Of a stretch of DNA of 64,000 nt, positions 6,159 through 39,521 are shown one piece after another. Below the pieces are notes generated by a model. The model ran no database searches. It was not told the origin of the DNA and saw only the letters and a list, made by a program, of their open reading frames with translations. The translations under genes were made by a program, and so were the position numbers. Source of the DNA: Naegleria gruberi (Eukaryota); NCBI GenBank assembly GCA_000004985.1, contig GG738879.1; one strand, given 5' to 3'. Each line of letters begins with the position of its first letter. Positions within the stretch are counted from its first letter, which is position 1.

Positions 6159-7712
6159 ATGTTATCAAATGCATCATCTTCATCATGGAAAGAAATTCTA
6201 TTGAACGGTCATAAGAATAATCAAATCAGCTCATCTCCAGAATTACTCGAAGCACTGAAATGCATGTTGCGAGAATTATACAAAATTCTTCCATTACTTC
6301 ATCAGAAAAAGGGATTTTTCAGTAAGAATATTCAATCGGCAATTAGTGGACAAATTCTGAGTGAGTGCATAGGGAAAGTGATGGGGTCGAGTGGTGAATT
6401 GATTGATTATATTGGAAAGTTGATGATTAAAGAGAAAATGATTGAATTGGATGGAGATTCGGATAGTTTACTTTCAGAAAAGAAGAATGTTAAATTCTTG
6501 CATCCTTATTTACCTAGATTAGTCATTGTTGGAGGTGGACATGCTGGATTGACTAGTGCCATTCAATTACATGAATATTTCTCAATTGTTTTGATTGATA
6601 AGAATGATCACATTTCATTGAAACCTGGTTTTCCAATAATTTTTGATAATGTTGAGAATGCTAACAAGATTTCAGTGAAATATTCTGATTGTATGCCATC
6701 TAGTGTTTCATTTGTTCGTGGATTGACCAAGGTAGTGAGAGAAGACGGTGTATTTATTGAGCTAATTGACAAAGATTCTCAAACTAATCTCTTTAGTGTA
6801 AATACAGAACAAGCTAATGATGAGCTGAAGAATTGTAAATATTTAACATTTGATTATTTGGTCATTTCTACTGGTTGTAATTCATGGAGAAATCTTCCAA
6901 GCTACGATGGCAGAGGAGGTGACAATTCGATTTTCTATGCTGACAGCTATGACATGAACATGCTCAAAGTTGCAGTGAATACCATTTCCCAAAGTGATGA
7001 TTCCAAGGCAGTTGTCTTGATTGGTGGTGGAATTGTTGGTTCTGAATTTTTTGGAGCTCTAGCTCTTGGTTTTCCAAAGAAGAAAATTTACATGATTCAA
7101 AGATCTGAATTATTGATGAAACCTAATCAAGATGCTCACAATATTGCAATGGAAACTTTTGGTAAAATGAAGAATGGAACCATTCTGTTGAATAGTCAAG
7201 TGGATCGTCAATCAGATTCTGAAACTCTGGTTGTAAAATCATTGGAAAGTGGAGAAGAAACATCAATCAAATGCAGTGTTTGCATTTTGGCTTCTGGAAC
7301 TGCTCCAAACTCAACCCTGATGAAAGATTACTTTGCATCTAGCTTGGATGAATATGGATATATCAAAGTTAATTCTTCCTTCCAACTTTTCAAATCAAAT
7401 TCAGAATTTTATAGAAATATCTTTGTTTTGGGAGATGTCAGTAATTTGGATTCTTTGAAATTAATGCAAAATGCAAATTTTCAAGCTGAGAAATTTATTG
7501 AGATTGCCAAGTTGATTCTTCAAAAACAGGAAAAGGATTTACCAACCTATCAATCCAACGATGCTAGAGTTATGGCCGTCTCACTTGGTCCTAAATATGG
7601 ATTTGTAATGAAGGAAGATAAGGTAATGTTCAAATCAGGAATTGTTATCAAATTGAAAGGTTTCATCCAATCCTCTACTGTTAAAGGTTACAGCAAACAA
7701 GCCAAAAAATAA
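6159..7712 (+). CDS. FAD-dependent pyridine nucleotide-disulfide oxidoreductase (AIF/AMID-like).
   Basis: Two Rossmann dinucleotide-binding motifs (VIVGGGHAGL and VLIGGGIVGSEF) in a 517-aa single-exon ORF starting at an ATG. Confidence 0.7.
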   Translation: MLSNASSSSWKEILLNGHKNNQISSSPELLEALKCMLRELYKILPLLHQKKGFFSKNIQSAISGQILSECIGKVMGSSGELIDYIGKLMIKEKMIELDGDSDSLLSEKKNVKFLHPYLPRLVIVGGGHAGLTSAIQLHEYFSIVLIDKNDHISLKPGFPIIFDNVENANKISVKYSDCMPSSVSFVRGLTKVVREDGVFIELIDKDSQTNLFSVNTEQANDELKNCKYLTFDYLVISTGCNSWRNLPSYDGRGGDNSIFYADSYDMNMLKVAVNTISQSDDSKAVVLIGGGIVGSEFFGALALGFPKKKIYMIQRSELLMKPNQDAHNIAMETFGKMKNGTILLNSQVDRQSDSETLVVKSLESGEETSIKCSVCILASGTAPNSTLMKDYFASSLDEYGYIKVNSSFQLFKSNSEFYRNIFVLGDVSNLDSLKLMQNANFQAEKFIEIAKLILQKQEKDLPTYQSNDARVMAVSLGPKYGFVMKEDKVMFKSGIVIKLKGFIQSSTVKGYSKQAKK

Positions 7713-7826
7713 ACATTTTCACACACGCTGATAACATTTCAATACTTTTACAAAACTGTTGATGAATCCCATTTAAAAAAACTTTAAAAGGAAAGCATAT
7801 TCCCTAAAGTTTCAAAAAATTAAAAA

Positions 7827-8862
7827 ATGCTTTCTTTTTTACGCAAGGCTTTGACACACAACAATAACAAGAATAATAATAACAATAATAATAATAATAA
7901 TAATACTGATAATAATTATTTTCTTCCCACTGATAGTTTAATAATAATATTTCAATTTCTCAATCAACAAGATTTTATTAAAATTTCATCTGTTTGTAGA
8001 TATTGGAGATTTGTTGTTCAACAACCATTCCGAAAGGAATTTACCAATTATATATTTTACTCTTCTTATTCAATAATTTATGGTAGATGTATTATCAATG
8101 CATTTGAATTTTTTAATTTCTTTTCTTCCATAACATTAGATTTGCATAATACTGTACCTGAATCAACATTTAAAACTCTACTTTCTTCAATGAAATTACA
8201 AAGTTTATTTATAGATTCATGTGTTGTTAAAAATAATATACCATTCAATTCTGTGAAACAATCTAATATTACTGAATTAGGATTAAATTGTTTAATGAAA
8301 AAGAAAGATTTACGTGCTTTATTTACTGTACTTCCAAATTTGAAATATTTAAGTTTAGGAATGAATGTTACAGAATCTTTAATTAGTACAGAATCATTTC
8401 TGAGTACATATTGTCATAAATTAGAAACACTCCATTTACAATTATTACCTGAAAATCAAAAAAAAATTGCAAAATTATTAAATGGAATATTTAATCCATC
8501 AACAACAACAATATCCAATCTCATTGATATTAGAATATTTGTAACAGATAATAATCCAACAAGTAATAGAAAATTAAATAATTTTACATTTGATTTTAAT
8601 TCATTTCCATATTTAAAATATTTATTTCTTGATATTACCTATATTTATACATTGGAATCAATTAGTAATGTATTAAATTCAAATAATATTTCAAAATTAC
8701 AAGAATTTGGATTTGGAACTATTAGAAAATCTATTGAAAAATTACAATTTAATTCTAGTGAAAATTTTAAAAATTTAAAAAAATTATTTTTAAATAGAAC
8801 CGANATGATGACAAATATAGATAATCTTCCTTCATTAGAATTATTATATATAGATGAATATG
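7827..8862 (+). CDS. F-box/leucine-rich-repeat protein with an N-terminal poly-Asn tract. The 3' part is interrupted by an assembly gap.
   Basis: F-box motif LPTDSLIIIFQFLNQQDFIKISSVCRYWRFV followed by LRR-like L..L..L repeats. The ORF runs into the N run at 8863. Confidence 0.6.
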
Positions 8863-8912
8863 NNNNNNNNNNNNNNNNNNNNNNNNNNNNNNNNNNNNNN
8901 NNNNNNNNNNNN
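8863..8912. other. Assembly gap (50 N). A further single N lies at 8804.
   Basis: A literal N run in the sequence. Confidence 0.99.
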
Positions 8913-9066
8913 ATTGGTTGGTAAAATACTGTGTGTAAAGATTTCTTGCAAGAATCACAGCGTCTTTCAAAATAGATACCTTGTTCCTTGTTATTTTGTA
9001 AAGACATTTTTTTTCGTCTAAAAACTGGCTTTCGACTGAAAATTCGAATCAAAAAAAACACAATAA

Positions 9067-10004
9067 ATGCCAGGTAAGTACTTCCACATCAACCTTGTAA
9101 CTTTTCCATCAACTGCCAATTTTACATCATTTCAGCATCATCACCATCAGTAAAAGTAAGTAGTTTAGCACCATTTATTCAACATAAATTATTCTAATAA
9201 CAAAGAAGAAGACTAAATTAACCATAACATGTTTACCAGAAGCCACATATGAAAAGTTGGCTGACTGTTATCCCAAGGCTGCAGTGGGATGGAAGGATAC
9301 TCAACGAGCGTAAGTAAGCAAATTGTTAGTTATTTATTTGATTTTATATAGACTAAAAAGAGAAGTTATGCAATGTATTCGAATTTACTGTAAGCGAAAA
9401 GGGATTCCCCAAAATGATACTGCCATGAGTTCATGTAAAGATTGTCTGCAATTAACTTTTGGTGAAACATTGTTCAGAAAACATGTTAATGGATTGTCAA
9501 CGGATACATATAAATACGTGCAAAGTATTGTAAGTGAAGTTTATCCTTAAATTATTTATTAATTATTTTCCAACAATTAATTAGAGCTATTGTTATGTCA
9601 GTAAGATATTCAGCAATCTGTGGAGTTCTTTTAAAAGAAAGAGTCTAATAGAATTAAAGAAAAAAGAGAAGCCAAAAAGAAAGAAGAATTCCAATGTAGA
9701 AGTTTCTAATATAGAAGGGGTTCCATCCTCAATTCAAGCAACAGCTATTCAACCTTCTACCTCTTCACCAACAAGAGAACATGTCAGAGCCAACAATGGT
9801 CAATTCTCTTCATTGCAGAACTATGTTGCAGAAGATGAACAAGTTGTTTTTTTAACACTTGTTAAAGATTGGATCAAAAAACCTGACACAAGAGCAACAC
9901 AACCTTCAGCAGACGCAATTAATTTGCTTGATATGGAATCAGATGGTGCAGATCTTTATTCAGATAATGGTCAATCAGACGCAGAAGAAGCACAACAATT
10001 GTAA
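9067..10004 (+). CDS. Hypothetical protein. Four exons: join(9067..9073,9240..9309,9352..9529,9585..10004), ~247 aa with an acidic C-terminus.
   Basis: Three GTAAGT donors and YAG acceptors give a continuous frame (MPEATYEKLADCYPKAAVGWKDTQRAALKREVMQCIRIYCKRKG...QSI SYCYVSK...AEEAQQL). The 7-nt first coding exon is the least certain part. Confidence 0.45.
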
Positions 10005-10442
10005 ATAAATAAATCAGTTTTACTCAAATTATGAAAATTGTAATGGTCAACAGAGTAAATTAAGGGAAACTTTCAGTCAAATACCAACACACTAAAAGCC
10101 GCATAGAAACAGAATGTTCACCGAATAGTCACTGAATGTTTACCATATAATAACTGAATGGTTACTGAATATTTATTGAATAGTTACCCACCAATTTCAT
10201 TCCTTTACCCAACAATCAACCGACTACCAACCAACTAACACTGAACTAAAACGGTCAGGAGAGTATGGGCTGATATTCGATTAATTTCTGGAAAATCGTT
10301 CAGTTGTTTTCGGAAACAAGTTGGGGAAAATTAGGGTTGTAGTCGGTGATAGTAGGGTTGTGGATGGGGTTTAGACGGAACATAGCCAACTAAAAACCAA
10401 CTATAACACTGTCTATTACCCAAGTACTCCACTCTTAGGTTA

Positions 10443-11738
10443 ATGAAAAAGAAAGATTTACGTGCTTTATTTACTGTACTTCCAAATTTGAAATATTTAA
10501 GTTTAGGAATGAATGTTACAGAATCTTTAATTAGTACAGAATCATTTCTGAGTACATATTGTCATAAATTAGAAACACTCCATTTACAATTATTACCTGA
10601 AAATCAAAAAAAAATTGCAAAATTATTAAATGGAATATTTAATCCATCAACAACAACAATATCCAATCTCATTGATATTAGAATATTTGTAACGGATAAT
10701 AATCCAACAAGTAATAGAAAATTAAATAATTTTACATTTGATTTTAATTCATTTCCATATTTAAAATATTTATTTCTTGATATTACCTATATTTATACAT
10801 TGGAATCAATTAGTAATGTATTAAATTCAAATAATATTTCAAAATTACAAGAATTTGGATTTGGAACTAATAGAAAATTTATTGAAAAATTACAATTTAA
10901 TTCTAGTGAAAATTTAAAAAATTTAAAAAAATTATTTTTAAATAGAACCGAAATGATGACAAATATAGATAATCTTCCTTCATTAGAATTATTATATATA
11001 GATGAATATGAAAAAAAGTTTTATTCCACTGCAAACTATTCAAAACCATGGAATTTAGCATCTAATGTGAAAATGCCATCTCTAAAATATTTACATTTAA
11101 GTCTTATAAATGAAACTCATTTACCTGATAGATTAAATGTGGAATCATTTAAAAATATTAAATATTTTTATTTTGAATCTCAATATAATATTGATTTATC
11201 AGAATTGAGTAAATTAAATTTAGAAATATTAATTCTTAAAATTTCTTTAAAATATAACAAGAATATATTTCATCACATTTCTAAAATTTCAACCTTGAGA
11301 GATTTAACATTTCGTAAGCCTATTTGGGATATTGATTTGAAATTACTTTGTAAATTACCAAATTTAGAATATCTTAATATTAGATTGGAATTTAAAAGTG
11401 AAATATCTTTTACTTTTAATTCACTAACTACACTCTCAATTTATTCAGATAATTTGAAAGGATTAAACTTTTTTCAAATATCAAATTTACCAAAATTGAA
11501 AACTTTAATAATTCGTAATGATTTGGATAATAACCATACGTGGTGGTTGCAACCATTATTTCCAAATTTACAAATAATTAAAGCAAGTTATAACAGTTTT
11601 GGAATATTTTTAGCATCTCAATATAATGATGGTATGAATTTTGGTGAGTATGAGGTTTCACAAAGAACAGCAACTCATTTACAAAATGAATATGTATGGC
11701 TCTTTCCAAAAAAATTTATTTTTGGCAATGCTCAATAA
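10443..11738 (+). CDS. LRR protein fragment. A duplicate of the 3' two-thirds of the F-box/LRR gene, lacking the F-box; truncated paralogue, pseudogene or assembly artefact.
   Basis: A 431-aa ORF whose first ~190 codons are near-identical to 8300..8860, followed by a further ~240 codons of LRRs. Confidence 0.45.
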   Translation: MKKKDLRALFTVLPNLKYLSLGMNVTESLISTESFLSTYCHKLETLHLQLLPENQKKIAKLLNGIFNPSTTTISNLIDIRIFVTDNNPTSNRKLNNFTFDFNSFPYLKYLFLDITYIYTLESISNVLNSNNISKLQEFGFGTNRKFIEKLQFNSSENLKNLKKLFLNRTEMMTNIDNLPSLELLYIDEYEKKFYSTANYSKPWNLASNVKMPSLKYLHLSLINETHLPDRLNVESFKNIKYFYFESQYNIDLSELSKLNLEILILKISLKYNKNIFHHISKISTLRDLTFRKPIWDIDLKLLCKLPNLEYLNIRLEFKSEISFTFNSLTTLSIYSDNLKGLNFFQISNLPKLKTLIIRNDLDNNHTWWLQPLFPNLQIIKASYNSFGIFLASQYNDGMNFGEYEVSQRTATHLQNEYVWLFPKKFIFGNAQ

Positions 11739-12352
11739 TGTTTGTAAACATTTCATATTATGGAATGCTAAGGAGAATAGAACTTGGGAAAGTTGTCAAT
11801 TTTTCAAAGATCAAAACACATGGATTTGACAACAAGTGAGCCAACACATGAGTGGAACAACAGAAGAGGATTTATATTGGCAACAAGTTTAATTTATTTA
11901 CTGCTGTTAAAGCTAATCCAGGATCAAGTGTTAAAATTCTTGATTTAGTTGAAATTCAAACAATTAACAGTTATGGAGATATTTGGGATAGTTTGCCAAA
12001 ACTGACTTTTCCAAAATGACTCCAAAAGAAATCATGACCTTTTATTTGAGAACTAATGGTCATTACTCTGCTCTCTTCAATAATGATTATCAAACTTAAT
12101 CAAACTGATGGTGGTCTTGTTCGATCGAGACAACCAATAGAATGTAAAACCAATCAATAAAAAGAGTGTAATCAATATGGAAAGTTGGAAATAAATTACT
12201 GTGAAATATCTATATAGAAGGTATGCTCATGTTCACAGTGAATAATACTCTAAAAATAACATGAACATATAAATGGCAAATCTTTAAACAAGTTTCTTAA
12301 ATGAACCTTAAAAAACTTTAAAAAATTAGCACAAACATCAACCAACCAACAT

Positions 12353-12841
12353 ATGAAGAAGATTCTAAACAAGAGAACAACAGCTAACAAGACAACGGTT
12401 GATAATGCTGCTGCACCGAATAAGAAGGAAGGAAGTAGCATAACTTTGCAAGAAGCTTATTCCGAAGCCTTGTTAAGTAATGAATCAGGAAGAAGACAAC
12501 AACAGACAACAAGCTTATTTAAAGAAGAAGAAGAAGAAATATATGAAGGCTATTTTGTATTTTCATCATCATTAATTAATAATCACCAGTTTGATGATGA
12601 TCAAAATGATGAGAAAATTGAACAATTAATTATAAAAGGAAAACAAAGAGATGAGAACAATTTGATAATGAAGAAGGGAGTAGTTAAGGAAATTCATCCA
12701 TTCTATGGAGAAGTCTCATTGAATAGAGGTTCGTTTGAGGGAATGGAAGTTTCTTCAGGAAAGATTAGTTTCATTGTAAAGAAAGGTAAACAATTTAGAA
12801 GAATTTGTTTTGCTGCCTGTAAGGGAGATGTTACAGAATGA
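12353..12841 (+). CDS. Hypothetical Lys/Glu-rich protein. Overlaps the next ORF by 1 nt of frame offset and may be the 5' part of one gene.
   Basis: A 162-aa ORF. A frame switch would be needed at 12810-12841, and the only GT..AG there would make an 18-nt intron, which is too short. Confidence 0.35.
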   Translation: MKKILNKRTTANKTTVDNAAAPNKKEGSSITLQEAYSEALLSNESGRRQQQTTSLFKEEEEEIYEGYFVFSSSLINNHQFDDDQNDEKIEQLIIKGKQRDENNLIMKKGVVKEIHPFYGEVSLNRGSFEGMEVSSGKISFIVKKGKQFRRICFAACKGDVTE

Positions 12842-13724
12842 ACAGCTTTTCAAATTGGAATGGAAAATACATCAAGATATTGAACATGGAGGATGGAATT
12901 TTGTTGAAATTGATGGACGATTGGAATTTTCACATTTGGGAAAAGATGAAGAGTGGATGAATGAGAAACTTACGAATGAATATATTGAAGATGTGGAGCC
13001 AATTGTTGAAAAGTTTATCAGTTCGAAACTTGAAATGATTTCTGTATTGGGAGCTTACAATTGGCAAAATATCTTGTCCTATCTCCATGTGAAAGATTTG
13101 AATACTTGCTATCAAACTTGTAAGATAATGAGAGAGTTGATTTCCTCGAGAGATTTTCTTATCAAGCTCATTGAATCTCAGTGTATAACATTACCAGAAA
13201 TGTACTATCAGGAATCTCAAAGAAATTTAAAACATTGTAAGAAAATTGACTTGTTGAAGCTGTACTATGACAGAAGAGATAAGCTTAGTTGGGGAAGAAA
13301 GTTGAATGGAAGTTATATCATTTGGTTGAATGAAAATTATTGGAAAACCAAAAAGTCATCAAGCAGTGTATTTGGAAAGATTATCAAACTGAGTTCTGTT
13401 TGGTGGTTTGACTTTGGAGCAACCTTAACTCTGAGAAGAGGTCGTTACAAGGTTTCACTCCGTTACAAAACCACTTCTAATGCTTGTGGATTGGCTGATA
13501 GCACTTTTAATGTCATTTCAACAAGTCCACCAAACTCTCACGTTGATACAACCTCCATGAATACTTTGTGTAAATTTAGTAGTGATCAGTGGACATTGTT
13601 ACCACTTGGAGAAGTTCGAGTTGAGGCAGATACAGGATCATTAACCATTCAGATTTTTGATCATAATAATACATACAAGGCAGGATTGAAAATTGATTAT
13701 TTGCTATTTGAAAAATACAATTAA
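12825..13724 (+). CDS. F-box-like domain protein with a C-terminal beta-rich domain.
   Basis: An ATG at 12825 lies in the frame of track ORF 12810..13724. Motif ISVLGAYNWQNILSYLHVKDLNTCYQTCKIMRELI is F-box-like. Confidence 0.5.
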   Translation, partial: EMLQNEQLFKLEWKIHQDIEHGGWNFVEIDGRLEFSHLGKDEEWMNEKLTNEYIEDVEPIVEKFISSKLEMISVLGAYNWQNILSYLHVKDLNTCYQTCKIMRELISSRDFLIKLIESQCITLPEMYYQESQRNLKHCKKIDLLKLYYDRRDKLSWGRKLNGSYIIWLNENYWKTKKSSSSVFGKIIKLSSVWWFDFGATLTLRRGRYKVSLRYKTTSNACGLADSTFNVISTSPPNSHVDTTSMNTLCKFSSDQWTLLPLGEVRVEADTGSLTIQIFDHNNTYKAGLKIDYLLFEKYN

Positions 13725-13935
13725 ATATTATTGTATTCTAATGTGAATAATCTTAATTTGCAACAATACTTATGAAATATTGGTATCTCTATATGAACTT
13801 TTGGGTAATCGTATGTATATATTTATGGAAATTACTCAAATTTGGAATTGTTATAAATACTGAGAAAATTGCCAACCAAGATTTTGTTTAATATTCTACA
13901 ACGCATCGGCTTTTAATTTTCAAAACTTATAAAAC

Positions 13936-15561
13936 ATGCCCGTTACACCTCTTCAATCCAACAAGGAATCTGAACGCAATAACAACCGAACCCCAAAGAA
14001 GAGAAAATCAAAATTTTCATTTCTCTCTTCACAATTCTTTCCGTCAACAGTCAATTCATTAGAAGATGATGCAAATGTTGAATTTGAATTACCAGCCACT
14101 CCTAAAGAATTCAAACCAGCCGAAAGTAAATTAAAGAAAGTAGTAGAAAGGAAAATTACCACCACTACTTTCAATTTCATTGATGAATCAATTGGAGATC
14201 CCTTCATCTTTTATCAAATTCTATCTTATCTTCCAGTCAGTTCTCATCTTGCAACAAGTCTTGATATGGGTAAAATCTTCTCATTCGATTATTGTGTACA
14301 GTATACAAGAAGAGAACTTTACAAAAAAATGGAACATTCTCTATTAAATTGCATGTTGGTTCATTCTCGATGGTATGAATTAATTGATAGGGACATCTTT
14401 TTCAAGATTATTGTAAATTCACAGTTTACAAAATATTTTCAATTTTATTACAATGAACGAGTTTACAATAACGCCATTACAAATGAAATGGATAGATTTT
14501 GGAGGAATACTCTACGAGATATTGTGGAAAACTTTCGGTGGAGTCCTTTCATTTCAAGAGAAAAGGAATATTTCTATAATTATTGGAATTCGAAAGATCA
14601 TGGATTGTTAAGTTTCTTATCTGATTGTTTCCAAGAAGATTTGGTTAGTGAATCGAGTAGTGGAGCTGATACCACCTCTAATTGCGAAAAATCAGTATTT
14701 GCAATGATACGAGACGAAAGTGAGAAGGTTTATATTTGTAGAGGTGGAAGAATTCAAAGTAATGGAAAGGTAATTCAAGCACCAGTTGAGAAGATTCCCA
14801 GATTGAAGTGTACTTATCAATTATTCAGAACTGATAAGCCAATTCTATGTGATATGATTGTAGACTTTCAAGTTTGTAATTTACCTATTAGAAAGTCAGA
14901 AGAAACTATTCCACCTTCTCATGAAATGCTCAACATTCACCAAGATAACTTTATTCTACTTGGAATTATCGATAGTGATCTGTTAAACTCAAGAGGCGAC
15001 TATCTGTCATGTCCAGAACAAACATCACTAGTGACAGATGTCATGACAGAATCAAGTAGTGCCAAATTCAACTATCTTGGGGAGTACAATCTCCAAAGTA
15101 GATTTAGAGGAAGACAACGTGAAATTAATCTCAATCTTGGTTATGCTTCAAATGGTTTCATTTCGTATTCCACAATTATAGATGGAAAGTTCACAGAAAG
15201 ATGGCGAATTGGTGACATTATTAGTTTCGAAATTCGTGGCATTAATTCATTCCTCGACAAGACAGCTACCAGTAGAAAGAAGGAGTATGCCTCTATTACC
15301 ATTATTCGAAACGGAAGATTCGTCTGCCATGTTGAAGACTTTATGATATTGAATCGAACAGTTTCCATCAGAGAAAATTCACCAAATCCATTTCCTAAAC
15401 TGTATTATTTCGCGTGCAACTTTTACTATGGTTCAGTTGCCTCATCACTTAATCAAAATCCTCAAGTCTCGTCGAACCTGTCACAAAATTCGAATTCCTT
15501 GACAGCCAATCAAAATAATTATGTTCCCGCCATTAGAATTAATAGAGTAACTTATTTGTAA
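13936..15561 (+). CDS. F-box-like protein (541 aa), a tandem neighbour of the preceding F-box-like gene.
   Basis: Motif FIFYQILSYLPVSSHLATSLDMGKIF...RWYELI. Single ORF starting at an ATG. Confidence 0.5.
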   Translation: MPVTPLQSNKESERNNNRTPKKRKSKFSFLSSQFFPSTVNSLEDDANVEFELPATPKEFKPAESKLKKVVERKITTTTFNFIDESIGDPFIFYQILSYLPVSSHLATSLDMGKIFSFDYCVQYTRRELYKKMEHSLLNCMLVHSRWYELIDRDIFFKIIVNSQFTKYFQFYYNERVYNNAITNEMDRFWRNTLRDIVENFRWSPFISREKEYFYNYWNSKDHGLLSFLSDCFQEDLVSESSSGADTTSNCEKSVFAMIRDESEKVYICRGGRIQSNGKVIQAPVEKIPRLKCTYQLFRTDKPILCDMIVDFQVCNLPIRKSEETIPPSHEMLNIHQDNFILLGIIDSDLLNSRGDYLSCPEQTSLVTDVMTESSSAKFNYLGEYNLQSRFRGRQREINLNLGYASNGFISYSTIIDGKFTERWRIGDIISFEIRGINSFLDKTATSRKKEYASITIIRNGRFVCHVEDFMILNRTVSIRENSPNPFPKLYYFACNFYYGSVASSLNQNPQVSSNLSQNSNSLTANQNNYVPAIRINRVTYL

Positions 15562-15797: not shown

Positions 15798-17992
15798 ATG
15801 GAACGAAATGCTCCCACCCACTTGACCAAAATAAATGATCTTGATGAACGTACTTTGAGAAAATTGTTGGTTAAAGCCACAAAGATTAAATCCAATCCAT
15901 CAATCTATTCTCACAGAATGGAAGATAAGGTTTGTCATCTTTCTTAATCAAAATTTTAACCAATAATCCACAGTCACTGTTAATGTTATTTGAAAAACCG
16001 TCACTTCGTACACGTCTTTCATTCGAAACAGCAATGACATCATTTGGTGGAAATGCCATCTATTATAGTGCCGATGAAGGACCGTTCGGAAAGAAGGAAA
16101 ATGTAAAGGATACTGCCATGTGTGCAGCTCAATATGTTGATGCATTTGTGTTGAGATTAAAGTCTAGAGAAAGTTTGTTGGAATTTGTAAAATATTCAAA
16201 AGTTCCTGTTATAAATGCCTTAGATGATTGGGCTCATCCTTGTCAAATATTGGCTGACCTGTTTACCATTGCAGAATTGAAATTAAATCCAAAACCACTC
16301 CACGAAAATCATCTCAACTTTGATAGACTGAAAATGGCTTACTATGGTGATTGTAGAAATAATGTCACTTATGATTTGATGAGAGCTGCTGCCATGATGA
16401 ATTTCAAACTCGTTCTCTCTTGCCCTGATAATGATGACTATAAACCAGTCCAAGAAGTTTGGGATGAAATCAAGAGAATCAATGAGAAGAGTGTAGAATG
16501 GATTGAAAATCCACTTGAAGCTTCTAAGGGATGTGATGTCATCTATACAGATTCATGGATGTCCTACCACATTCCTGAAAGTATGCTTCAAACCAGAGAA
16601 CAAGCATTGAAAAACTATCAAGTTAACATGCCAATATTGAAAAATGCAAAGAGTGATGTTATTTTCATGCATTGCCTTCCTGCAAAACGTTCTGAAGAAG
16701 TTACAGATGAAGTGATGGACTCTGTACATTCAGTTATCTATCATCAAGCATGGAATAGACAATGGGCTCAACAAGCACTCCTCCTCTATGTCATCTATGG
16801 ACCCAGTATCTTTTCAGAACACGAATATGAATCCGAGCTCTTATCAGAGGAAAAGTACTTTGCTATGGCTCCAAAACATCTTGGAACGATGCACTCCATT
16901 AGTAAGAAGAAGCACGAGTCTGTAAATAAGGGTGAAAAGAAATATCTGAAACATGGAAACAAGGAGAGAATACTTATAAGCTTTGGAGGAAATGCTCTTC
17001 AAAGTGATTCCACAAAGGAGGTAACCTATGAAGATTTACATTCCAACATTGATAAGAATTGTTCTGCACTTGCCAAATTTCTCCAAAATTGCAAGCAATC
17101 CAACATTTGCATTACACATGGAAATGGTCCTCAAGTTGGTTTCATTCACAAGGAATTGAATCATGAATCCCAAATGCCACTCGATGTTTGCGGAGCCATG
17201 TCTCAATCATTCATTGGTTATCAATTCCAACAATCCCTGATGAATAATATGCACCAACAAGACACGAAAGGAAATGTCCATGTTCGTTCTGTTACCACAC
17301 TCATCACACAAACTCTGGTGGATCAAAATGACAAGGCTTTCCAACATCCTAACAAGCCTGTTGGTAAATTCCTCTCTCCTGAAGAGTATGAATCATCAAA
17401 GAAGGACAAACAAATGATGACTTTCCACAAGTTTGATGAAGGCTACAGAAGAGTTGTTCCTTCTCCAACACCTATTGATATCATTGAATTGGACACTATC
17501 AAAACACTCTTCAATGAAGGACACTTGGTTATTTGTAATGGAGGTGGAGGTATCCCTGTTGTTAAAAGCCGAGATGAAGTTGGTGGTGATGAGAAAGCAA
17601 TGATTGGTAAAAAGCAAGCACAAAGAAAGAACCACCTGATGGGCATAGAAGCAGTCATTGACAAGGATAGATCCAGTTCCCTGCTAGCACAAAAGCTTAC
17701 TGTCGATTACTTTATCATTCTCACCAAAGTGGATCATGTCTACTTGAATTACTCTTCAAAAAAGGAGGAGAAGAAGCCTATTACTTCAATGGATGTTGAA
17801 ACTGCTCGACAATACATTACGGAAGGATGCTTTGAAGAAGGTACCATGCTACCAAAGATTGAATCAGCCACTGAATTTGTTACCAAGACTGGAAAACCTG
17901 CTCTCATCACAAGCTTGGACAATTTCATCAGAGAAACTTCCAACAATGAAATCAAACTACGTCATATTGAAGGTACTTGGATTGTTCCATAA
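15798..17992 (+). CDS. Bifunctional ornithine carbamoyltransferase-carbamate kinase fusion protein. join(15798..15929,15974..17992), ~717 aa.
   Basis: The N-terminal half carries the carbamoyltransferase motifs SLRTRLSFE (STRTR), HPCQILAD (HPxQ) and HCLPA (OTC-type HCLP). The C-terminal half carries the carbamate kinase signature ITHGNGPQVG plus the EGTMLPKIE-type C-terminus. Exon 1 (MERNAPTHL...HRMEDK) joins through a 44-nt GTTTGT..CAG intron in phase 0, restoring the conserved OTC N-terminus. Confidence 0.8.
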
Positions 17993-25313: not shown

Positions 25314-28069
25314 CTATTTAGTGTCCAATCGATCTTCAAAAGCCCATGAGCTTCGCATACTAACATCGTCCACCATTTCTCTGAGTTTTTCCAATCTCAT
25401 ATTCGCCACGAAATCAGTCGGATCTCTGCTCACAACCTTTCCAAATAACTCAATCGCCTTCACCACATCTTCACTTTTAAGATTATTCATAGTTGAGCTC
25501 ATGTTCATGGAATCCACCACCCCAAAAGTGTGTTTCTGTCCATCAATTGTAAGCTTATCTGGAACGCATTCACCATGAGAGTAACTTCCAAACATTATCT
25601 CGATTGCATCTTCAAAGTTGGTCTTGTTTTTGGCTTTCAATTCGTGCGAGTTATTCGAAACTGTTGAAGGTGTTCTTGTGAGAATTTCAAATACCCAACT
25701 TGCTTGTTGTCTTCCAACAACTGCTAAGCGGCCTATTTTTCTTTGATTCCTCTTTGGAAGAAGTGGAGATGTTTCAATTACTTCCTTCGTAACGAGAATG
25801 TCAACTCTGTAATGTTTAGTCAAAGATTCCAAACGAGCTGCCAAATTGACAGTATCTCCAATAATGGTTGGATCAACTCTTTGATCTTCACCAATCAATC
25901 CAACTGCACATTTACCTCTTGCAATTCCAATTCCAACTCTAACTGTTGGATATTTCTTACTCTTATTGAATTCTAATAATCTTCTTTGTATTTCCATTGC
26001 TGCCAAAACAGATTGACCAGGAGTTAAAAACAATGCCAAAATACCATCACCCAAATACTTGTCAATATATCCACCATGTTCTCTCACAACTGGTCCAACC
26101 AATGACAGATAATTATTCAAAAATTCAAAAGTCTCATCTGGTGTCATCTTTTCACAAATACTTGTATAACCTCTAATGTCAGCAAACAACACATCCAATT
26201 CCATTTCAAAGTAATCTCCGTGCGTAAGGTCCATTACACTCTCCTTCTGAACAATCGACATGAATTCCTTTGGAACAAATTTGTGAACTGTCTCATTGTG
26301 CAATCTTAACAAGTCCTGAATGGTCCTCGAAAAGATTAACGACATAATTGATGAAAGGAAAATTCCCATAATTCCACCCACTGTATATCCTATCAATTCC
26401 TTAATAGCAAGCCCCTCTGATTCATTCTGATCCAACAAAATATCATCCCTAATCATATTCTCAATAGTTTTCAATTCATCGATTTTTTGTGTAATATTCC
26501 AGAACCAATTTTGAGCTGTAAAAATTGTCTTGGCATAGGTCAAATTGAAAGGAGAGGCCAATATGTATGATTCCATCATGTTTGTAACGGTCGCATTATT
26601 CACACTCAATGAAAGTTGCTCAAAATATTTGAAAGATCCAACATTTCTAGATTTGGCATCAATGATTGTGAACATGGTATCAAATCTTGATCTCAAATAC
26701 AAGTAACTGACATAGAAATCATTGGTAAAGGCACCAGCAGCTAATCCATTACTCACAGTAGCTCTCTTCTGACCCAAACTTTCCTTCATGACCATTAGGA
26801 GTGAATAAATATTCGATTTGATAAGAAAATCTGGATCTCTACCTAAACTTGTCGCCACATTTACAATATCAATCATATTCTTAATGATGGTAGTATAGAA
26901 ATCGAGAGCTACCTTCGCCACTGGAAATTTCAATGTTGAAATATTGTAACGATGAGCAGAGAGTATATGAAACGATGCATCAATCATATCGAGAGTTGGT
27001 TCAACTTTTTGTTTGGCAATTGTTTCGTCTTTTGCATAGGTAAAATAATCAATAATCCCCTTTTTTGTCGCATTCCAATTCAGTAATTGTAAATCTGTTG
27101 CATTTCGTTGTAAATCAAGCTCAGTAGTAAATGAGGTACCTTTCGAACCTAAATATAAAGAAGAAGAACCTCTTTCTTTTTGAATTTCATGAATAATATC
27201 CGAAATACCAGTTGTGAATATGGTAAGAAGAGTGTTGGCATCAGATTCTTTCACTCTCTTTCATCAAATTCAGTTTCGAATAATTACAATAAGAAACTTA
27301 CCAAAACTGAATAATTAATTAAAATTCCTTCAAATACTATCATACAAGCTAAAGAAAAGATAAAAATCAGAAGTAATTTGATAGAAAGTGGAATCTTTGC
27401 CAATATTTTTGATAAAGTCCACTTTCTTGCTTCCTTTTTCGAGACAACACTATACGAAATGTTAGAAGAAATACTGGAAGAAACTCCCATCATATTCTTT
27501 TCATATGAAGACCTAGACCCTGTATCCATTGTTCCTTCCTCAAGTGTTGTCAAATAATCTCCCTTCATATCATTTTCCTCAGCTTGTTTCGAATAAGTAC
27601 TTAGTGAACTAACTGATTTCTCCTTTTGCAATAAACTAATTTCCTTAGAACTTCTCAATGAATTCATTGTTGAACCTTGTTTTAGAAGAAAGTTGGTGTT
27701 GAGTGTTTTTTGAGTTCGAACCGAAACTAAACTTGGTTTACTCGCACTAGAACTCATGGCACCTAGATTAAGAGGAGTAATTTGATTTCGTTTAGGAGGA
27801 TTACTTTCAGGTCGAGAAACATGATGCTGATGAAGAAATAAATCTTCTGACTTGTTAGAAACTTTAGACGAATCGCCTACTATTGTATTCCTATCGTGCT
27901 GTTCTTCGTTCATTATTGAGGAAAGTCTTTGATGTTGTATGGATGATGTTTCGTCTATTGAATTCGAAAGTAATTCATCAGTTGTAGCACGGTGATGGTG
28001 TTCATGCGGAGAAGATGAATTACTACTACTACCGGAAGAAGATGTATGTTGCTTATACTTGTCAGACAT
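25314..28069 (-). CDS. Receptor-type class III adenylyl/guanylyl cyclase with an extracellular NIT-like sensor domain (paralogue A). complement(join(25314..27257,27302..28069)), ~903 aa.
   Basis: Exon 1 is a low-complexity cytoplasmic region plus TM1 (KIPLSIKLLLIFIFSLACMIVF). A 44-nt GTAAGT..AAAG intron is in phase 0. Exon 2 holds a NIT-like domain (IIHEIQKERGSSSLYLG; second half-repeat ESLGQKRATVSNGLAAGAF), TM2, and a cyclase domain with FADIRGYTS, KYLGDGILALF and GIGIARG. Confidence 0.8.
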
Positions 28070-28422: not shown

Positions 28423-31059
28423 TTATTTAAAATCAAGTCGATCTTCAAATGACCACATTGTATTGGCACTCAAAATTTCTTCCAATTTTGTTATTCTCAT
28501 TTGAACTAAATAATCCTGCGAGTCAACTTCTTGAATTTGTTTCAGATAATCAAGTGCTTGAATTGGATTAAACAAATCCTTTTCATACATCATGGCAATG
28601 GATGCTTCGAATTTATCCTTATGTTTCTTCTTACTGTCAACTGAACCAAAAGATGGAGATTCTGTCAAAATTTCAAATATGGTGCATGATTGTTGTCTTC
28701 CAACAACTGCAATCTTTCCAATATTTCTGTATTTGGCATTGGATAAAAGTGGTGATGAATCAATTACATCTCTTGTTACCATAATGTCAACTCTGTAATG
28801 TTTAGTCAAAGATTCCAAACGAGCTGCCAAATTGACAGTATCTCCAATTATGGTTGGATCAACTCTTTGATCTTCACCAATCAATCCAACTGCACATTTT
28901 CCTCTTGCAATTCCAATTCCAACTCTAACTGTTGGATATTTCTTACTCTTATTGAATTCTAATAATCTTCTTTGTAATTCCATTGCTGCTAAAACAGATT
29001 GACCAGGAGTTAAAAACAATGCCAAAATACCATCACCCAAATACTTGTCAATATATCCACCATGTTCTCTCACAACTGGTCCAACCAATGACAAATAATT
29101 ATTCAAAAACTCAAACGTCTCATCTGGTGTCATCTTTTCACAAATACTCGTATAACCTCTAATGTCAGCAAACAACACATCCAATTCCATTTCAAAGTAA
29201 TCACCATGATTCAAATCCATGACGCTATCCTTTTGAACAATCGACATGAATTCCTTTGGAACAAACTTGTGAACTGTCTCATTGTGCAACCTTAACAAAT
29301 CTTGAATAGTCCTTGAAAAGATTACAGCCAAAATGATAGAAGCAATTACAACACTGAAACCACCAACACAATAACCCATAAGAGAATCTTTGGCCGATGA
29401 TTCAATACTTTGCGAGTTATTAAATATGCCATCTCTAATGTTATCTTCCACTACTTTTAATTCATCAATCTTGGTAGTCACATTCCAAAACCAATTCTCT
29501 GCAGAAAACACCGATTGGGCTTTTGTTAAATTGAATGGTGAAGACAACATGTATGATTCCATCATATCAACAACAGCGTTACTCTTTACATATCCAGTTA
29601 ATTGTTGATAGTATCCAAGACTATCCCTGTTCCTCGATTTGGCATCAATGACCATGTACATGGTATCATATCTTGACTTTAAATATAAAAAGTTTACATA
29701 GAGATCATTGGTGAAAGCACCAGCAGCCACAGCATTACTACCAACAGCTCTTCTCTGACCTAAACTTTCCTTCATGACCATCAAGAGTGTATAGATGTTG
29801 GTCACGACGAGGAATTTACGATCTTCAGCCAAAGCAGCCAATACAGACACCACATCAATCATATTCTTAATGCAATTTGTGAAAAAATCCAATGCAGGTT
29901 TGGCCACTGGAAATTGTAAATTTGAAATCTTTTCTCTGTGAGAAGGCAGGACATTCAAATAGATATTCTCAATAATTTGAATAACTGTATACGTCTGATT
30001 CCTTGTAATTTCATCTTGTTCTATCAGTAAATCGAAAAATTCTGCAATAGAAGCCCTAGTTTCATTCCATTTAGAGAGGGCAAGGTTTGTGGCATTCCTC
30101 TGTGTAGCCAATTCAACCACAAACTTTTTACCTTTACCACCAAGAAAGAGTGATGAAGATCCACGTTCCTTTTGCAGTTCGTGGATGATTTGGGCAATAT
30201 TGGTGGAGAAGGTCGTTAATTTCTGAATACTCTGTGCTTCAAGAACTCGCTATATAGAGTAAGGGCCAACACCATGTTATTGTTATTGTGGAAAATCAGA
30301 GTTGTAATGAAACATCAATAAGAAAAATTGACAAATACCCAATTAAGGGATGAAACATACCTTTGCAGAATCATTCACTAATATGGCTCCAAAAACCACA
30401 AGCGAAATGATTGATAAAATCACAATAAAGAAAAGTTTCACAGGAAGAGGAATCATGGCAACGAGTTTTGAAAAGCTTACTCTCTTCTTTCGTTGCTGGT
30501 TTCTACTGACGATAGAGTAAGAGACTACTGATGAGGATATCGATTTCTGCGTGATTGACGTTCTCATCTTTTCCATGTCATCAAATGGATCTGTCTTGGC
30601 AAGATTTTGAAGGTTATTATCAAAGTTTTTAGAACTGGTGATACTGGATAGGAGTGAGCTCTGCGTTTTAACTGCAACTGTCTTGGATTCCTTCTTTTGA
30701 GTAGAGTTGTTTTTATAGTGATGATTCGGTTTGGATGAATTCATGGGAGAAACCTTTGCCTTAGAAGAGAAGAATATTGAGGTACTTAAGGTATTTGTTG
30801 TATTCCTTGTTGATTCTTCTTGTTGTTGCTCTTCATCTTGTTGTTGTTCTTCTTCAATGGTTGTACTCTTTTGATACGAAGGAGCATTTCCTTCCTCACT
30901 ATATGGTTTCTGAACGGGTGAGGGATCCTCTTCCAGAGTAGTAGTCCCACTCACAGTGTATCTATTCTCTCTATGTGAGAGATCCTGATGATGTTCCTCA
31001 TGATGTTGATGCTGATGATTTGTCATTTGGTGTGAATTTGTTTTTTTCTGTTGTACCAA
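28423..31059 (-). CDS. Receptor-type class III cyclase with a NIT-like sensor (paralogue B). complement(join(28423..30249,30362..31059)), ~841 aa.
   Basis: Same architecture as A. Exon 1 ends ...FGAILVNDSAK|GTATGT and exon 2 begins RVLEAQSIQKLTTFSTNIAQIIHELQKERGSSSLFLG. The 111-nt intron is in phase 0, and the catalytic core is ~97% nt-identical to A. Confidence 0.8.
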
Positions 31060-37049: not shown

Positions 37050-39521
37050 ATGAATAACTTTGTAACAGCTTTTCACTTAACTTCTATAGAGGATTTTAGT
37101 CCTATACAACGAGCTTACTTTCAAAACAATGGCGACCCGCAGCAACATCCACCTAATACACCTGACAATTCAACTACCACCTCTCACACCCCAATATCTG
37201 TACTCTCCTCAATTCCCTTCTATTCTTCGAAGGCCATTTCCAAGAATAATAGTGTTGCTCCTCTTCATGTATCAAATTATAGACCAACCACACCAAAGAT
37301 TAGAAAACAAACTTCTCTAAGCTTTATAAGAAGTTCCAAGACCTTTGATGTTTCACATTTACAGCGAGTAAGAATCTCAACCAGCTCATCAACGAGTCCT
37401 CTCATTGAGGAACATGTAGAAAAACCGAAAATCACAACATCACTACAAAAGTCTATTGCAGCATCTTCGACTGTTCCCTATGCTGTGGTTACATCATGTG
37501 ATACGAAGAGGATTAATCTTTCAAAATTAGTGGCAATGATTCCACTGCGAATCAAATTGTTCTTTATTGTCATTGTATCGATAGTTTCACTAGTGGCATT
37601 TGGTGCTATTCTTATTAATGATGCAGCAAAGGTATGTTTTTAAGCAATATATTAATTTGACAAGTTAATTATTTAACATTAATTGAACCTTTTTCAGAGA
37701 GTGGTGGAAACACAAAGTGTAAAACAATTAACGTTATTTTCAACAAATATGGCACAAATGATTCATGAATTACAAAAGGAGAGGGGTGCATCCTCTCTCT
37801 ATCTAGGAGCTAGAGGGACTAAATTTGGTTTAGAGCTTGGAAAACAAAGAAATGTAACAAACTCAGCTATTGAAAATTGGCCATCAACAAAAAAGTCTAT
37901 CGATGAGTTTTTCAATTTACTGACAGATAAGGATGATGTAGCTAGAAATCAAACTTATTCCATGGTGTCAAAAATTGATGAATATCTGGGTCAGCTGCCA
38001 AATCAGAGAGAAATGATTCAAAATTTACAATACAACTCATCCAAGCCAGTTATTGATTACTTTTCAGATTGTATTAGGGATATGATTGATGTAGTTTCAG
38101 TGGCTGCATCTTTGGCAGACGATAGAAAATTCCTAGTCATATCAAATATTTACACACTAGTCATGGCTTTAAAAGAAACATTGGGACAAAGAAGGGCCAT
38201 TGGAAGTAATGCTATGGCCGCAAGCGCTTTCTCTAATGATTTTTTCTTTTCATTTCTTGATCTCAAATCTAAATATGTGGCCCTCTATCAGGTTATAGAC
38301 ACCAAGTCAAGAAATAAGGATTGTATTGAATTATTTACCGATTTGGCAAATTATGTACAAAATTCATCATTGATAGATATGATGGAAAGAAACATGTTAT
38401 CCTCCCCTTTTAATTTATCACAGGCTGAACAATCATTTTCTGCTGAAATGTGGTTTTGGACCATTACTGAGAAAATTAACCAACTCAAAATGGTCGAGGA
38501 CAAGATTAGAGATTCAATATTTTCAAATGGTGAGGACATGAAAAAAAGTTCCATGGATGCTTTGATTGGATATAGTGTTGGAGGTTTTTGTGTGGTTCTT
38601 TCCTCCATTATTTTAGCTTTAATCTTTTCAAGAACGATTCAAGACCTGATGAATCTGTACGATGAGACAGTTCACAAATTCGTTCCAAAGGAATTCATGT
38701 CGATTGTACATAAGGATAATGTTGTAGATTTAAAGCACGGAGATTACTTTGAAATGGAATTGGATGTCATGTTTGCTGATATTCGTGGTTATACAAGTAT
38801 TTGTGAAAATATGACACCAGATGAGACGTTTGAGTTTTTGAATAATTATCTGTCATTGGTTGGACCAGTTGTGAGAGAACATGGTGGATATATTGACAAG
38901 TATTTGGGTGATGGTATTTTGGCATTATTTTTAACACCAGGTCAATCTGTTTTAGCTGCAATGGAATTACAAAGAAGGTTAATTTCTCTGAACCAATCTA
39001 AGAGGTATCCAACAGTAAAAGTTGGTATCGGTATTGCAAGAGGTAAATGTGCAGTTGGATTGATTGGAGAATCTCAGAGAGTTGATCCAACCATTATTGG
39101 AGATACTGTCAATTTGGCATCACGTCTTGAATCCCTTACAAAATATTACCAGGTGGATATTGTGGTAACAAGGGAAGTTATTGAAGCATCTCCACTGTTG
39201 GATCCATCAAGATTTAGAAATATTGGAAAAGTTGCAGTTGTTGGAAGACAACAGGCATGTTCAATTTATGAAATTATTACTCAATCTCCAAACAATGATA
39301 AGGAATTGAAGAAGGCTGTCACAAAAGAAAAGTTTGAGGCAGCTATTGAAATGATGTATGATAGGGATAATTTTTATCCAGATGAAGCTCTTGAATATCT
39401 CAAACAAGTTGTTGAAGAGGATGAAAATGACTATGTAGCTCAATTGAGAATGTACAAGCTGGAAGAAATTCTAAGTTCAGAATGCACTTGGCAGTATGAA
39501 GATCGATTAGATTTTAAATAA
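37050..39521 (+). CDS. Receptor-type class III cyclase with a NIT-like sensor (paralogue C). join(37050..37631,37698..39521), ~801 aa.
   Basis: Exon 1 ends ...LVAFGAILINDAAK|GTATGT. The 66-nt intron ends CCTTTTTCAG, and exon 2 begins RVVETQSVKQLTLFSTNMAQMIHELQKERGASSLYLG. TM2 is GYSVGGFCVVLSSIILALIF. The catalytic domain is near-identical in protein and nt sequence to A and B. Confidence 0.85.

Follow-up and report, generated by a model that had tools for sequence, protein, structure and literature searches.

Does a gene segment that occurs twice, on either side of a scaffold gap, in the stretch of Naegleria gruberi DNA analysed here (the window; 64,000 nt from GG738879.1) represent two pieces of the genome, or one piece that was written twice? 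We refer to the sequence to the left of the gap as contig A and to that on its right as contig B. Three exact matches to proteins of strain NEG-M assign the window to this strain; a different species, which the best match of the neighbouring oxidoreductase (54%) might have suggested, was rejected on these matches.

The duplicated segment

Base-by-base comparison at a start-to-start offset of 2148 matches 571 nt of the two contigs, a match that, at 99% identity, is far above chance level. The features are:

8292–8862, plus strand: copy 1, at the end of contig A; probably the read overhang of an empty insertion site (see below)
8863–8912: scaffold gap of 50 N, from a scan for N runs; under the explanation favoured below, it represents the absent left part of a mobile element
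10440–11010, plus strand: copy 2, adjoining that element on contig B

A preliminary description of this DNA had reported the near-identical pair with its four substitutions, as found here. Its coordinates require adjustment, since copy 1 begins at 8292 rather than 8291 and the interval given for copy 2, 10441–11012, is 2 nt too high. The substitutions (copy 1/copy 2) are 8546 A/G, 8722 T/A, 8731 C/T and 8768 T/A, spread over 223 nt and including three amino-acid changes; in addition, copy 1 has one ambiguous base, an N at 8804. The resulting divergence of 0.7% could equally well be that of alleles or of paralogues. The last 141 nt of copy 1 hold the ambiguous base and three of the four substitutions, a bias towards the end of contig A that is suggestive and weakly significant (P ~0.03 with the N included, 0.085 without it). 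The 64 kb contain no gap other than the 50-N run, outside which position 8804 is the sole N. On the 5' side of 8292 and 10440 the sequences are unrelated, position 8291 being T and 10439 being G, and the duplicated segment begins in both copies with the four bases TTAA.

The F-box/LRR gene

When 7827–8291 is joined to 10440–11738, a single uninterrupted open reading frame (ORF) of 587 residues results, with an F-box followed by leucine-rich repeats (LRRs). The ORF listing shows that the reading frame of contig A is also continuous over 8291/8292. The parts of the gene are:

7827–8862, plus strand: 5' part, on contig A, running through the unoccupied target site (ORF listing)
7863–7916, plus strand: poly-Asn tract, an AAT repeat (TRF)
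~7923–8027, plus strand: F-box, residues 33–67 (Pfam)
10440–11738, plus strand: 3' part, with ~14 LRR-like repeats, an in-frame ATG at 10443 and the stop codon at 11736–11738

The F-box is identified by the Pfam F-box-like family (E 3.6e-7; 30.3 bits against a cut-off of 24.3) and by F-box itself (E 3e-6). Copy 1 does therefore belong, as first described, to an ORF with an F-box and a poly-Asn 5' end, which starts at 7827 and runs into the 50 N at 8863–8912. The assignment of the 3' LRR part to copy 2 also holds, with the ORF continuing to the stop at 11738. The predicted LRR nature of the gene comes from a Pfam LRR_4 match that falls short of its cut-off (20 against 27 bits), together with an AlphaFold model (pLDDT 57) in which short strands recur at regular spacing. 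The matches of this model found by Foldseek in the PDB at E ≤ 0.001 are LRR proteins without exception, MAX2 and D3 being among the fold matches, and the closest PDB match in sequence, a weak one, is SKP2 (E 0.02). The predicted arrangement of an N-terminal F-box and an LRR solenoid is like that of the FBXL (SKP2/MAX2-type) receptors of SCF ubiquitin ligases. Unlike these, the Naegleria gene has no detectable sequence homologue, contains a poly-Asn tract and has a GC content of 21.8%, compared with 34–38% in the neighbouring genes.

The ORF is unannotated and is absent from the N. gruberi protein set. No homologue was returned by a word-indexed search of 15 billion proteins, including the N. 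gruberi proteome, or by a search of IMG/VR, and when 1.84 billion representatives were scanned in full with HMMER, the sole matches were two marginal ones to LRR proteins of bacteria; the window contains no second copy of the gene. Because these homology searches returned at most two marginal bacterial proteins, a viral or foreign origin of this AT-rich gene is unsupported, and no paralogue was found. Rfam, applied to 7700–12400 at E ≤ 1, detected no RNA family.

The intervening DNA

The sequence between the gap and copy 2 differs from the gene that it interrupts, with a GC content of 33.8% against 21.8%, and has features of its own:

8913–10439, plus strand: right-hand part of a putative mobile element (1,527 nt), at the start of contig B
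9067–10004, plus strand: element gene, complete, 242 residues in five exons (9067–9073, 9136–9155, 9206–9309, 9352–9529 and 9585–10004), from a hand-built splice model that keeps the frame
8913–9007, minus strand: start of a second ORF (ATG at 9007–9005; MSLQNNKEQGIYFERRCDSCKKSLHTVFYQP...), running leftward into the gap (translation and ORF listing)
10098–10187, plus strand: degenerate direct repeats, ACTGAATGGTT-like, with an 11-nt period (repeat-family search; TRF periods 11 and 22)

The product of the element gene matches XP_002679016, XP_002674185 and XP_002668307 of N. gruberi at 98–99% identity, all three encoded on scaffolds other than this one. These scaffolds measure 530, 362 and 7.2 kb, and the last protein is on the 7.2-kb one, an orphan scaffold. 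We conclude from these matches that the 1,527-nt DNA is a dispersed repeat, which would also explain why contig B starts inside it. A further copy is present in an ENA metagenome contig, L001, with 95% identity over 393 nt. No other copy occurs in the window, and none was found in the JGI metagenomes, queried with the protein, or in IMG/VR.

All four modelled introns are short (42–62 nt) and have the form GTAAGT...AG. Alternative splice models of the gene gave no exact match in the protein collection. The 242-residue protein contains no Pfam domain, and its structure model, with a pLDDT of 37, is uninformative. There is likewise no Pfam match for the 31 residues of the minus-strand ORF; since this ORF enters the gap, element sequence must be missing there. 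The preliminary description had noticed degenerate direct repeats upstream of copy 2, and these correspond to the 11-nt-period array at ~10098–10187, which we interpret as subterminal repeats of the element.

The 2.1 kb between the copies might instead be taken for a giant intron, with copy 1 as a spliced version, cDNA-like or retrocopied. Such a reading draws on the sequence ...CTTAG|G before copy 2, which resembles a splice acceptor, and on a GT at 8290–8291, but with the AG as acceptor the second exon would start with G at 10439, where copy 1 has T at 8291. The intron would, moreover, include all of one five-exon gene and the beginning of a second, whereas the introns modelled in the element are of 42–62 nt, and on its upstream side contig A passes without a break into the promoter and the adjacent gene. 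We regard an intron as extremely improbable and reject it on the mismatch at 8291/10439 and the content of the segment.

Terminus and target site

The boundary between the intervening DNA and copy 2 is defined by the following features:

10425–10439, plus strand: putative right terminal inverted repeat (TIR), TACTCCACTCTTAGG; its outer end reads 5'-CCTAAGAGTGGAGTA on the opposite strand, and the element ends at 10439
10440–10443: TTAA beside the right end of the element, the presumed target-site copy
8292–8295: TTAA, the unoccupied target site, with which copy 1 begins

The last 16 nt of L001 include an exact, inverted 15-nt match to 10425–10439 that stops precisely at 10439/10440; none of 2,000 shuffles gave a match longer than 13 nt. 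In its sequence this 15-mer looks like a terminal inverted repeat, with CCTAAGAGTGGAGTA in left-end orientation on L001 and TACTCCACTCTTAGG as the right end here, so that the two ends come from different copies. L001 shows just 16 nt of terminus, and the base pairs beside its TIR are ATAT, not TTAA. Searched for as an exact DNA pattern in metagenomes, TTAA plus the 15-nt TIR gave no match. Within the F-box/LRR gene, TTAA starts at 1.9% of positions. The window includes only the right end of the element, the left end, left TIR and left TTAA lying outside it, with the left flank in the gap. At the empty site there is one TTAA, and the ORF is intact; this would be expected after precise excision and equally in an allele that had never been occupied.

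Origin of the duplicate

The explanation that we favour, and consider probable, is that the insertion is heterozygous or partly excised, and that contig A represents the empty site and contig B the filled site, scaffolded in series. One F-box/LRR gene would thus exist in two states in NEG-M DNA, either intact or with the element inserted in the TTAA at 8292–8295, the two states belonging either to the two alleles of a clone that is heterozygous or to a mixture of filled and precisely excised chromosomes. Reads from the empty site would have been attachable only to the upstream contig A, extending it by 571 nt beyond the site as a thin, low-quality end. Reads from the filled state would have given contig B, which starts inside the repeat, where extension would have stopped, and passes through the right end of the element into the rest of the gene. 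In scaffolding, A would then have been set before B with a gap inserted as a placeholder, and the tandem duplicate would be spurious. The near-identical segment, the joined ORF, the multi-copy intervening DNA, the inverted 15-mer in an independent copy and the boundary TTAA are direct observations; to these our explanation adds empty and filled sites that would co-exist, in allelic or mosaic form, and a tail of contig A that would be of low coverage.

Copy 1 breaks off at the end of the contig, 571 nt beyond the breakpoint, a length that would fit one Sanger read if the N. gruberi assembly is, as we presume, Sanger-based. N. gruberi is described as heterozygous in the part of PMC9928731 that cites Fritz-Laylin 2010. 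The locus resembles the haplotype-redundancy artefacts of heterozygous drafts, in which allelic contigs follow one another at an indel, in that almost the same segment stands on either side of a gap, with one copy cut by a contig end, a poor-quality base close to this end and a structural difference at the boundary. There is no difference in kind, except that the structural difference can here be identified as a probable mobile-element insertion. The preliminary description had preferred a single gene written twice, possibly from two haplotypes, and that much is favoured by the 587-residue joined ORF and by the truncation of copy 1 at a contig end. Its general account of a collapsed or mis-scaffolded gene overlooked the likely cause, an insertion polymorphism, to which we are led because the 1.5 kb before copy 2 is a multi-copy element that ends at a TIR beside TTAA. 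The gene would have been written twice because the assembler strung together an element-free and an element-bearing version.

It is unlikely, in our judgement, that contig B or its first 1.5 kb comes from elsewhere, whether through a chimeric clone, through a repeat-induced mis-join or as an element-interrupted, near-identical paralogue at another locus that was scaffolded here. Repeats are a classic source of mis-joins, and the element is multi-copy, with one copy on the 7.2-kb orphan scaffold; the minus-strand ORF (9007–8913) that enters the gap is, moreover, not continued on contig A. A chimeric join would not, however, be expected exactly at a TIR and TTAA. Beyond 11010 the same ORF continues in frame, followed by ordinary single-copy genes whose products match N. 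gruberi proteins encoded on one 384-kb scaffold, and the paralogue version is opposed by the lack of a second gene copy in the window and of any related protein among the 15 billion, N. gruberi proteome included.

A real duplication would mean that part of the F-box/LRR gene had been copied on the same chromosome by a transposon-associated rearrangement, giving the order gene, remainder in the gap, element and 5'-truncated gene copy, which is the order of the deposited scaffold. It could have arisen by alternative transposition or by repair after aberrant excision; alternative transposition, involving sister chromatids or reversed ends, has reportedly been described for maize Ac. Copy 2 starts at an element terminus and TTAA, where the junction of such a rearrangement would be expected, although simple insertion polymorphism accounts for the same junction without a rare event. 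The three amino-acid changes over 223 nt are not obviously error-like, and an in-frame ATG (10443) lies 3 nt after the start of copy 2. Copy 1 is, on the other hand, cut short by the contig end after no more than about one read length, with an N near that end, and the gap, written as 50 N, would need to conceal 728 nt or more of the gene as well as the left part of the element. Cut-and-paste insertion itself yields duplications of 4 bp, not 571 bp (PMC5381638). We therefore consider a real duplication quite improbable. Somewhat more doubtful still is its specific form, in which a TTAA-targeting transposon made a tandem partial duplication by aberrant transposition and left a 5'-truncated, LRR-only copy. 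If this were true, the LRR-only copy could be expressed as a new protein, because its in-frame ATG is 3 nt in, directly downstream of the rightward-transcribed gene of the element.

For users of the N. gruberi reference, a false duplicate would mean a local assembly error by which a 587-residue F-box/LRR gene is split, partly duplicated and missing from the protein set. It would be an ordinary artefact, and an unsurprising one in the draft assembly of a heterozygous protist.

Affinities of the element

The dispersed copies, the apparent TIR and the TTAA at the boundary mark the element as a likely cut-and-paste transposon that targets TTAA, with ends (5'-CC...GG-3') like those of piggyBac, and it is from these features that we infer the superfamily. 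Elements of the piggyBac type target TTAA and have TIRs of 12–19 bp, the motif C[C/A/T][C/A/T][T/G/A][T/A/G][T/G/A], subterminal direct repeats and precise excision, their cut-and-paste insertion duplicating 4 bp at the target (PMC5381638). The element here shares with them the adjoining TTAA, a TIR of at least 15 nt whose outer hexamer CCTAAG fits the motif, the 5'-CC...GG-3' ends and the putative subterminal direct repeats. The ATAT that flanks the L001 copy is among the rare non-TTAA piggyBac sites listed in PMC5381638. Unlike known piggyBac-like elements, it carries an intron-containing gene of 242 residues without recognisable domains and a second, divergent ORF start, only one of its ends being visible. 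The DDD transposase of piggyBac elements (PF13843-type), which has a cysteine-rich domain at its C-terminus, was detected neither in six frames of 8913–10439 at Pfam E ≤ 1 nor in the 242-residue protein and the 31-residue ORF. A transposase may be encoded in the left part, which the scaffold lacks, or this copy may be non-autonomous.

Two other groups were considered. Kolobok elements are TTAA-specific, have been reported in Naegleria, have termini of the form 5'-RR...YY-3' and in some families encode two proteins (PMC9587614). The target, the presence in Naegleria and the at least two ORFs of the element agree with this, but its 5'-CC...GG-3' ends are opposite to those of Kolobok. With one more base counted as part of the element (GGT in the window, GGA in L001), TA would follow both copies, as in the TA duplication of Tc1/mariner; this would need a variable terminal base and a flanking base shared by chance.

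Repeats annotated as piggyBac have been found in N. lovaniensis (PMC6125883). Since the copies of the element are 98–99% identical and at least one insertion is apparently unfixed, the sequences indicate that a cut-and-paste element with piggyBac-like ends has probably been mobile recently in the NEG-M lineage, carrying an intron-containing gene of no recognisable function. An element with such recent mobility might be suitable for testing as a genetic tool in Naegleria, and its insertion in the F-box/LRR gene might also serve as a marker for heterozygosity or excision.

The direct repeat and the assembly gap

Base comparison at a fixed offset across 7000-12500 reveals a direct repeat of 571 nt, in which 8292-8862 (copy 1) corresponds to 10440-11010 (copy 2), starting 2148 nt further on. 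Four substitutions separate the copies (8546 A/G, 8722 T/A, 8731 C/T and 8768 T/A), along with an ambiguous base, N at 8804; the sequences to the left of 8292 and of 10440 are unrelated. Copy 1 is cut off by a 50-N gap at 8863-8912, the sole gap in the 64-kb window, where position 8804 is the only other N. The preliminary description of a repeat with four substitutions, whose first copy runs into the gap, is borne out by this comparison; it placed copy 2 2 nt too high and the start of copy 1 one base too early, and is otherwise accurate. We refer to the assembled sequence left of the gap as contig A and that to its right as contig B.

The F-box/LRR gene

An ORF with a poly-Asn tract starts at 7827 and stays open straight through 8291/8292 up to the gap; residues 33-67 match the Pfam F-box above the curated cut-off (E 3.6e-7). 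The frame of copy 2 remains open to a stop at 11738, and 7827-8291 joined to 10440-11738 gives a single ORF of 587 aa. Its C-terminal 431 aa contain ~14 LxxLxL-type repeats, and a single-sequence AlphaFold model of this part has short strands at regular spacing (pLDDT 57, pTM 0.55). Foldseek gives 22 PDB matches at E <= 0.001, every one an LRR protein; among them are TLR8, internalin A, LRRC8, MAX2 and D3, the last two being F-box/LRR proteins. The Pfam LRR_4 match lies under the cut-off, and the best PDB sequence match is SKP2 (E 0.02). Given the F-box, the LRR-like repeats and the LRR-only Foldseek matches, the architecture is therefore of FBXL type, and the assignment of an F-box and poly-Asn to the gene part with copy 1, and of 3' LRRs to copy 2, holds.

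No homologue of the protein turned up when 5.8 billion proteins were searched by word index, and a full HMMER scan over 1.84 billion cluster representatives returned only two marginal bacterial LRR proteins; the gene is without homologue among 15 billion proteins, and no viral relative was found in IMG/VR. Both copies are missing from the N. gruberi protein set, and the GC content is 21.8%, compared with 34-38% in neighbouring genes. The joined segments 7827-8291 and 10440-11738 are an unannotated orphan of foreign-looking composition, and this AT-rich gene is a real feature of the locus.

The segment between the gap and copy 2

Features of the intervening segment (8913-10439)
9067-9073, 9136-9155, 9206-9309, 9352-9529, 9585-10004, + strand: five-exon gene, 242 aa (frame-keeping splice model)
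from 9007 leftward into the gap, - strand: ORF (translation)
~10098-10187: degenerate direct-repeat array, 11-nt period (repeat detection)

The array accounts for the degenerate direct repeats already noticed 5' of copy 2. The four introns of the five-exon gene, each 42-62 nt long, are all of the form GTAAGT...AG. Its unannotated product has 98% identity with N. gruberi XP_002679016, which shares a 90% cluster with XP_002674185 and XP_002668307, and differs by a few residues from each of the three; these lie on records of 530,355, 362,555 and 7,225 nt. Three near-identical proteins on other records, together with the window copy, show that 8913-10439 belongs to a dispersed repeat of which at least four nearly identical copies exist, which by itself accounts for a contig beginning there; the window holds no second one. 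As the minus-strand ORF runs into the gap, repeat sequence must be missing there. No Pfam match was obtained for the 242-aa product, the minus-strand ORF or any of the six frames, and a structure model of a 193-aa relative is too poor for use (pLDDT 37).

That the segment is a giant intron, with the duplicate a spliced copy, is scarcely credible; we reject it because 8291 and 10439 differ (T/G) and because of what the segment contains.

In the subterminal region (10190-10439), C-rich stretches alternate with G-rich ones. At ~10330-10375 there are short motifs like degenerate telomere repeats (TTAGGGTTG, GTAGGGTTG and GGGGTTTAG), with telomere-like motifs of the CCAACTAA type on the other side, and a 14-nt inverted pair is present at 10219-10232 and 10334-10347.

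The end of the element

A relative of the segment, L001, is a 510-nt ENA metagenome contig (ERZ929261, k127_325338) reached via a 47-aa fragment in the 90% cluster. It is 95% identical to 9773-10163 and diverges beyond, and its final 16 nt (CCTAAGAGTGGAGTAA) include the exact reverse complement of 10425-10439 (TACTCCACTCTTAGG), the final 15 nt ahead of copy 2, so that the match ends exactly at 10439/10440. Because shuffling the L001 tail 2,000 times gave no match to 10164-10439 longer than 13 nt, and the observed match lies at the very terminus, a chance origin is negligible. Thus 10425-10439 looks like a terminal inverted repeat (TIR), a right-end sequence found in left-end orientation in another genome, and the boundary of copy 2 is, on this comparison, the probable end of a mobile element. 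TTAA, which starts at 1.9% of positions in the F-box/LRR gene, follows directly at 10440-10443 and also opens copy 1 (8292-8295).

Relative to the window, L001 has a 2-nt deletion in the coding region at 110-120, and this environmental copy is therefore frameshifted; relatives of the element exist outside the NEG-M laboratory strain.

Elements of the piggyBac-like group insert at TTAA, excise precisely and frequently carry direct repeats near their ends; their TIRs are 12-19 bp, with C[C/A/T][C/A/T][T/G/A][T/A/G][T/G/A] as the first six bases, and non-TTAA flanks, ATAT among them, are rare (PMC5381638). The outer hexamer CCTAAG, the TIR of at least 15 nt, the 11-nt subterminal repeats and the ATAT flank of the L001 copy all fit. 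In N. lovaniensis, piggyBac repeats have been annotated (PMC6125883). Kolobok elements also target TTAA and occur in Naegleria, with termini 5'-RR...YY-3' (PMC9587614), whereas those here are of the opposite pattern, 5'-CC...GG-3', so that a Kolobok assignment fails on the termini. A TA target of the Tc1/mariner type would require the element to extend one base further and to end in a variable base. We conclude that the element may work like a piggyBac-type element and is a candidate, not a proven, member, because no transposase is visible and one end only is present. This young, multi-copy element, with piggyBac-like ends and an intron-containing gene aboard, is a real feature of the locus.

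Origin of the duplicate

Contig A reads ...AAATTGT-TTAA-TGAAAAAG... at the empty site, and the right filled junction in contig B reads ...CTCTTAGG-TTAA-TGAAAAAG...; both are exactly the junctions predicted by insertion at TTAA. The duplicate probably represents the empty and filled states of a transposon insertion in a single gene, joined in series; most likely no chromosome carries it. The reading preferred in the preliminary description, one gene seen twice and possibly two haplotypes, was probably right, and lacked the specific cause, a transposon insertion polymorphism. The sequenced DNA would hold both states; reads from the empty site would clash with the element and attach to contig A only, lengthening it by 571 nt, which is short of one read length, while all shared sequence from TTAA onward would go to contig B. 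Since the segment is a multi-copy repeat, leftward extension of contig B would be blocked within it, and a scaffolder facing linked but overlapping contigs would insert a placeholder gap. A thinly covered contig end would fit the N at 8804 and also the late substitutions, three of the four lying within the last 141 nt of copy 1, although this clustering is statistically weak (P 0.03 when the N is counted, 0.085 when it is not). A passage in PMC9928731 reports N. gruberi as heterozygous; the same pattern would arise if the element had excised precisely from some of the cultured cells. Both the biology and the artefact are ordinary.

It is unlikely that the join is chimeric, or that a second, paralogous locus was scaffolded at this position: the junction falls exactly on the TIR and TTAA, contig B carries the remainder of the gene in frame and, beyond it, single-copy genes of the same scaffold, and no paralogue is detectable in the window, the word-indexed search or the HMMER scan. 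We consider a real duplication on a single chromosome, with the element at its junction, to be about as unlikely. Aberrant transposition is known to generate such structures, and the gap conceals the right end of copy 1, but this is the rarer event and needs a gap much larger than that written.

The insertion-site TTAA overlaps an in-frame ATG at 10443 (window 10440-10445), toward which the five-exon gene is transcribed. In the filled state, read-through transcripts could in principle yield an LRR-only protein of 431 aa.

Neighbouring genes

Three window ORFs (ATG-to-stop) are identical letter for letter to XP_002675167, XP_002675171 and XP_002675244 of N. gruberi NEG-M, all on one 384,281-nt record of what we take to be the JGI whole-genome-shotgun assembly of Fritz-Laylin et al. 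2010. The NIT-cyclase genes and a GC content of about 34% are in keeping with N. gruberi.

Neighbouring F-box and NIT-cyclase genes
12810-13724, same strand as the F-box/LRR gene: F-box plus phloem-protein-2 (PP2) ORF (Pfam)
13936-15561, same strand as the F-box/LRR gene: F-box-like ORF (F-box matches under the Pfam cut-off)
25314-27254 (-), 28423-30120 (-) and 37683-39521 (+): three paralogous NIT (nitrate/nitrite-sensing) plus adenylate/guanylate cyclase genes

Three successive same-strand genes with F-box matches occupy 7827-15561, apparently forming a small cluster of F-box genes, and the NIT-cyclase paralogues all lie inside 14 kb. A clean 517-aa pyridine-nucleotide-disulphide oxidoreductase ORF at 6159-7712, best matched by an N. 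gruberi paralogue (54% identical), is absent from the protein collection and appears to be unannotated or differently modelled. Aspartate/ornithine carbamoyltransferase and amino-acid-kinase domains share one ORF at 15932-17992, whose product resembles a fusion of an OTCase with a carbamate-kinase-like protein.
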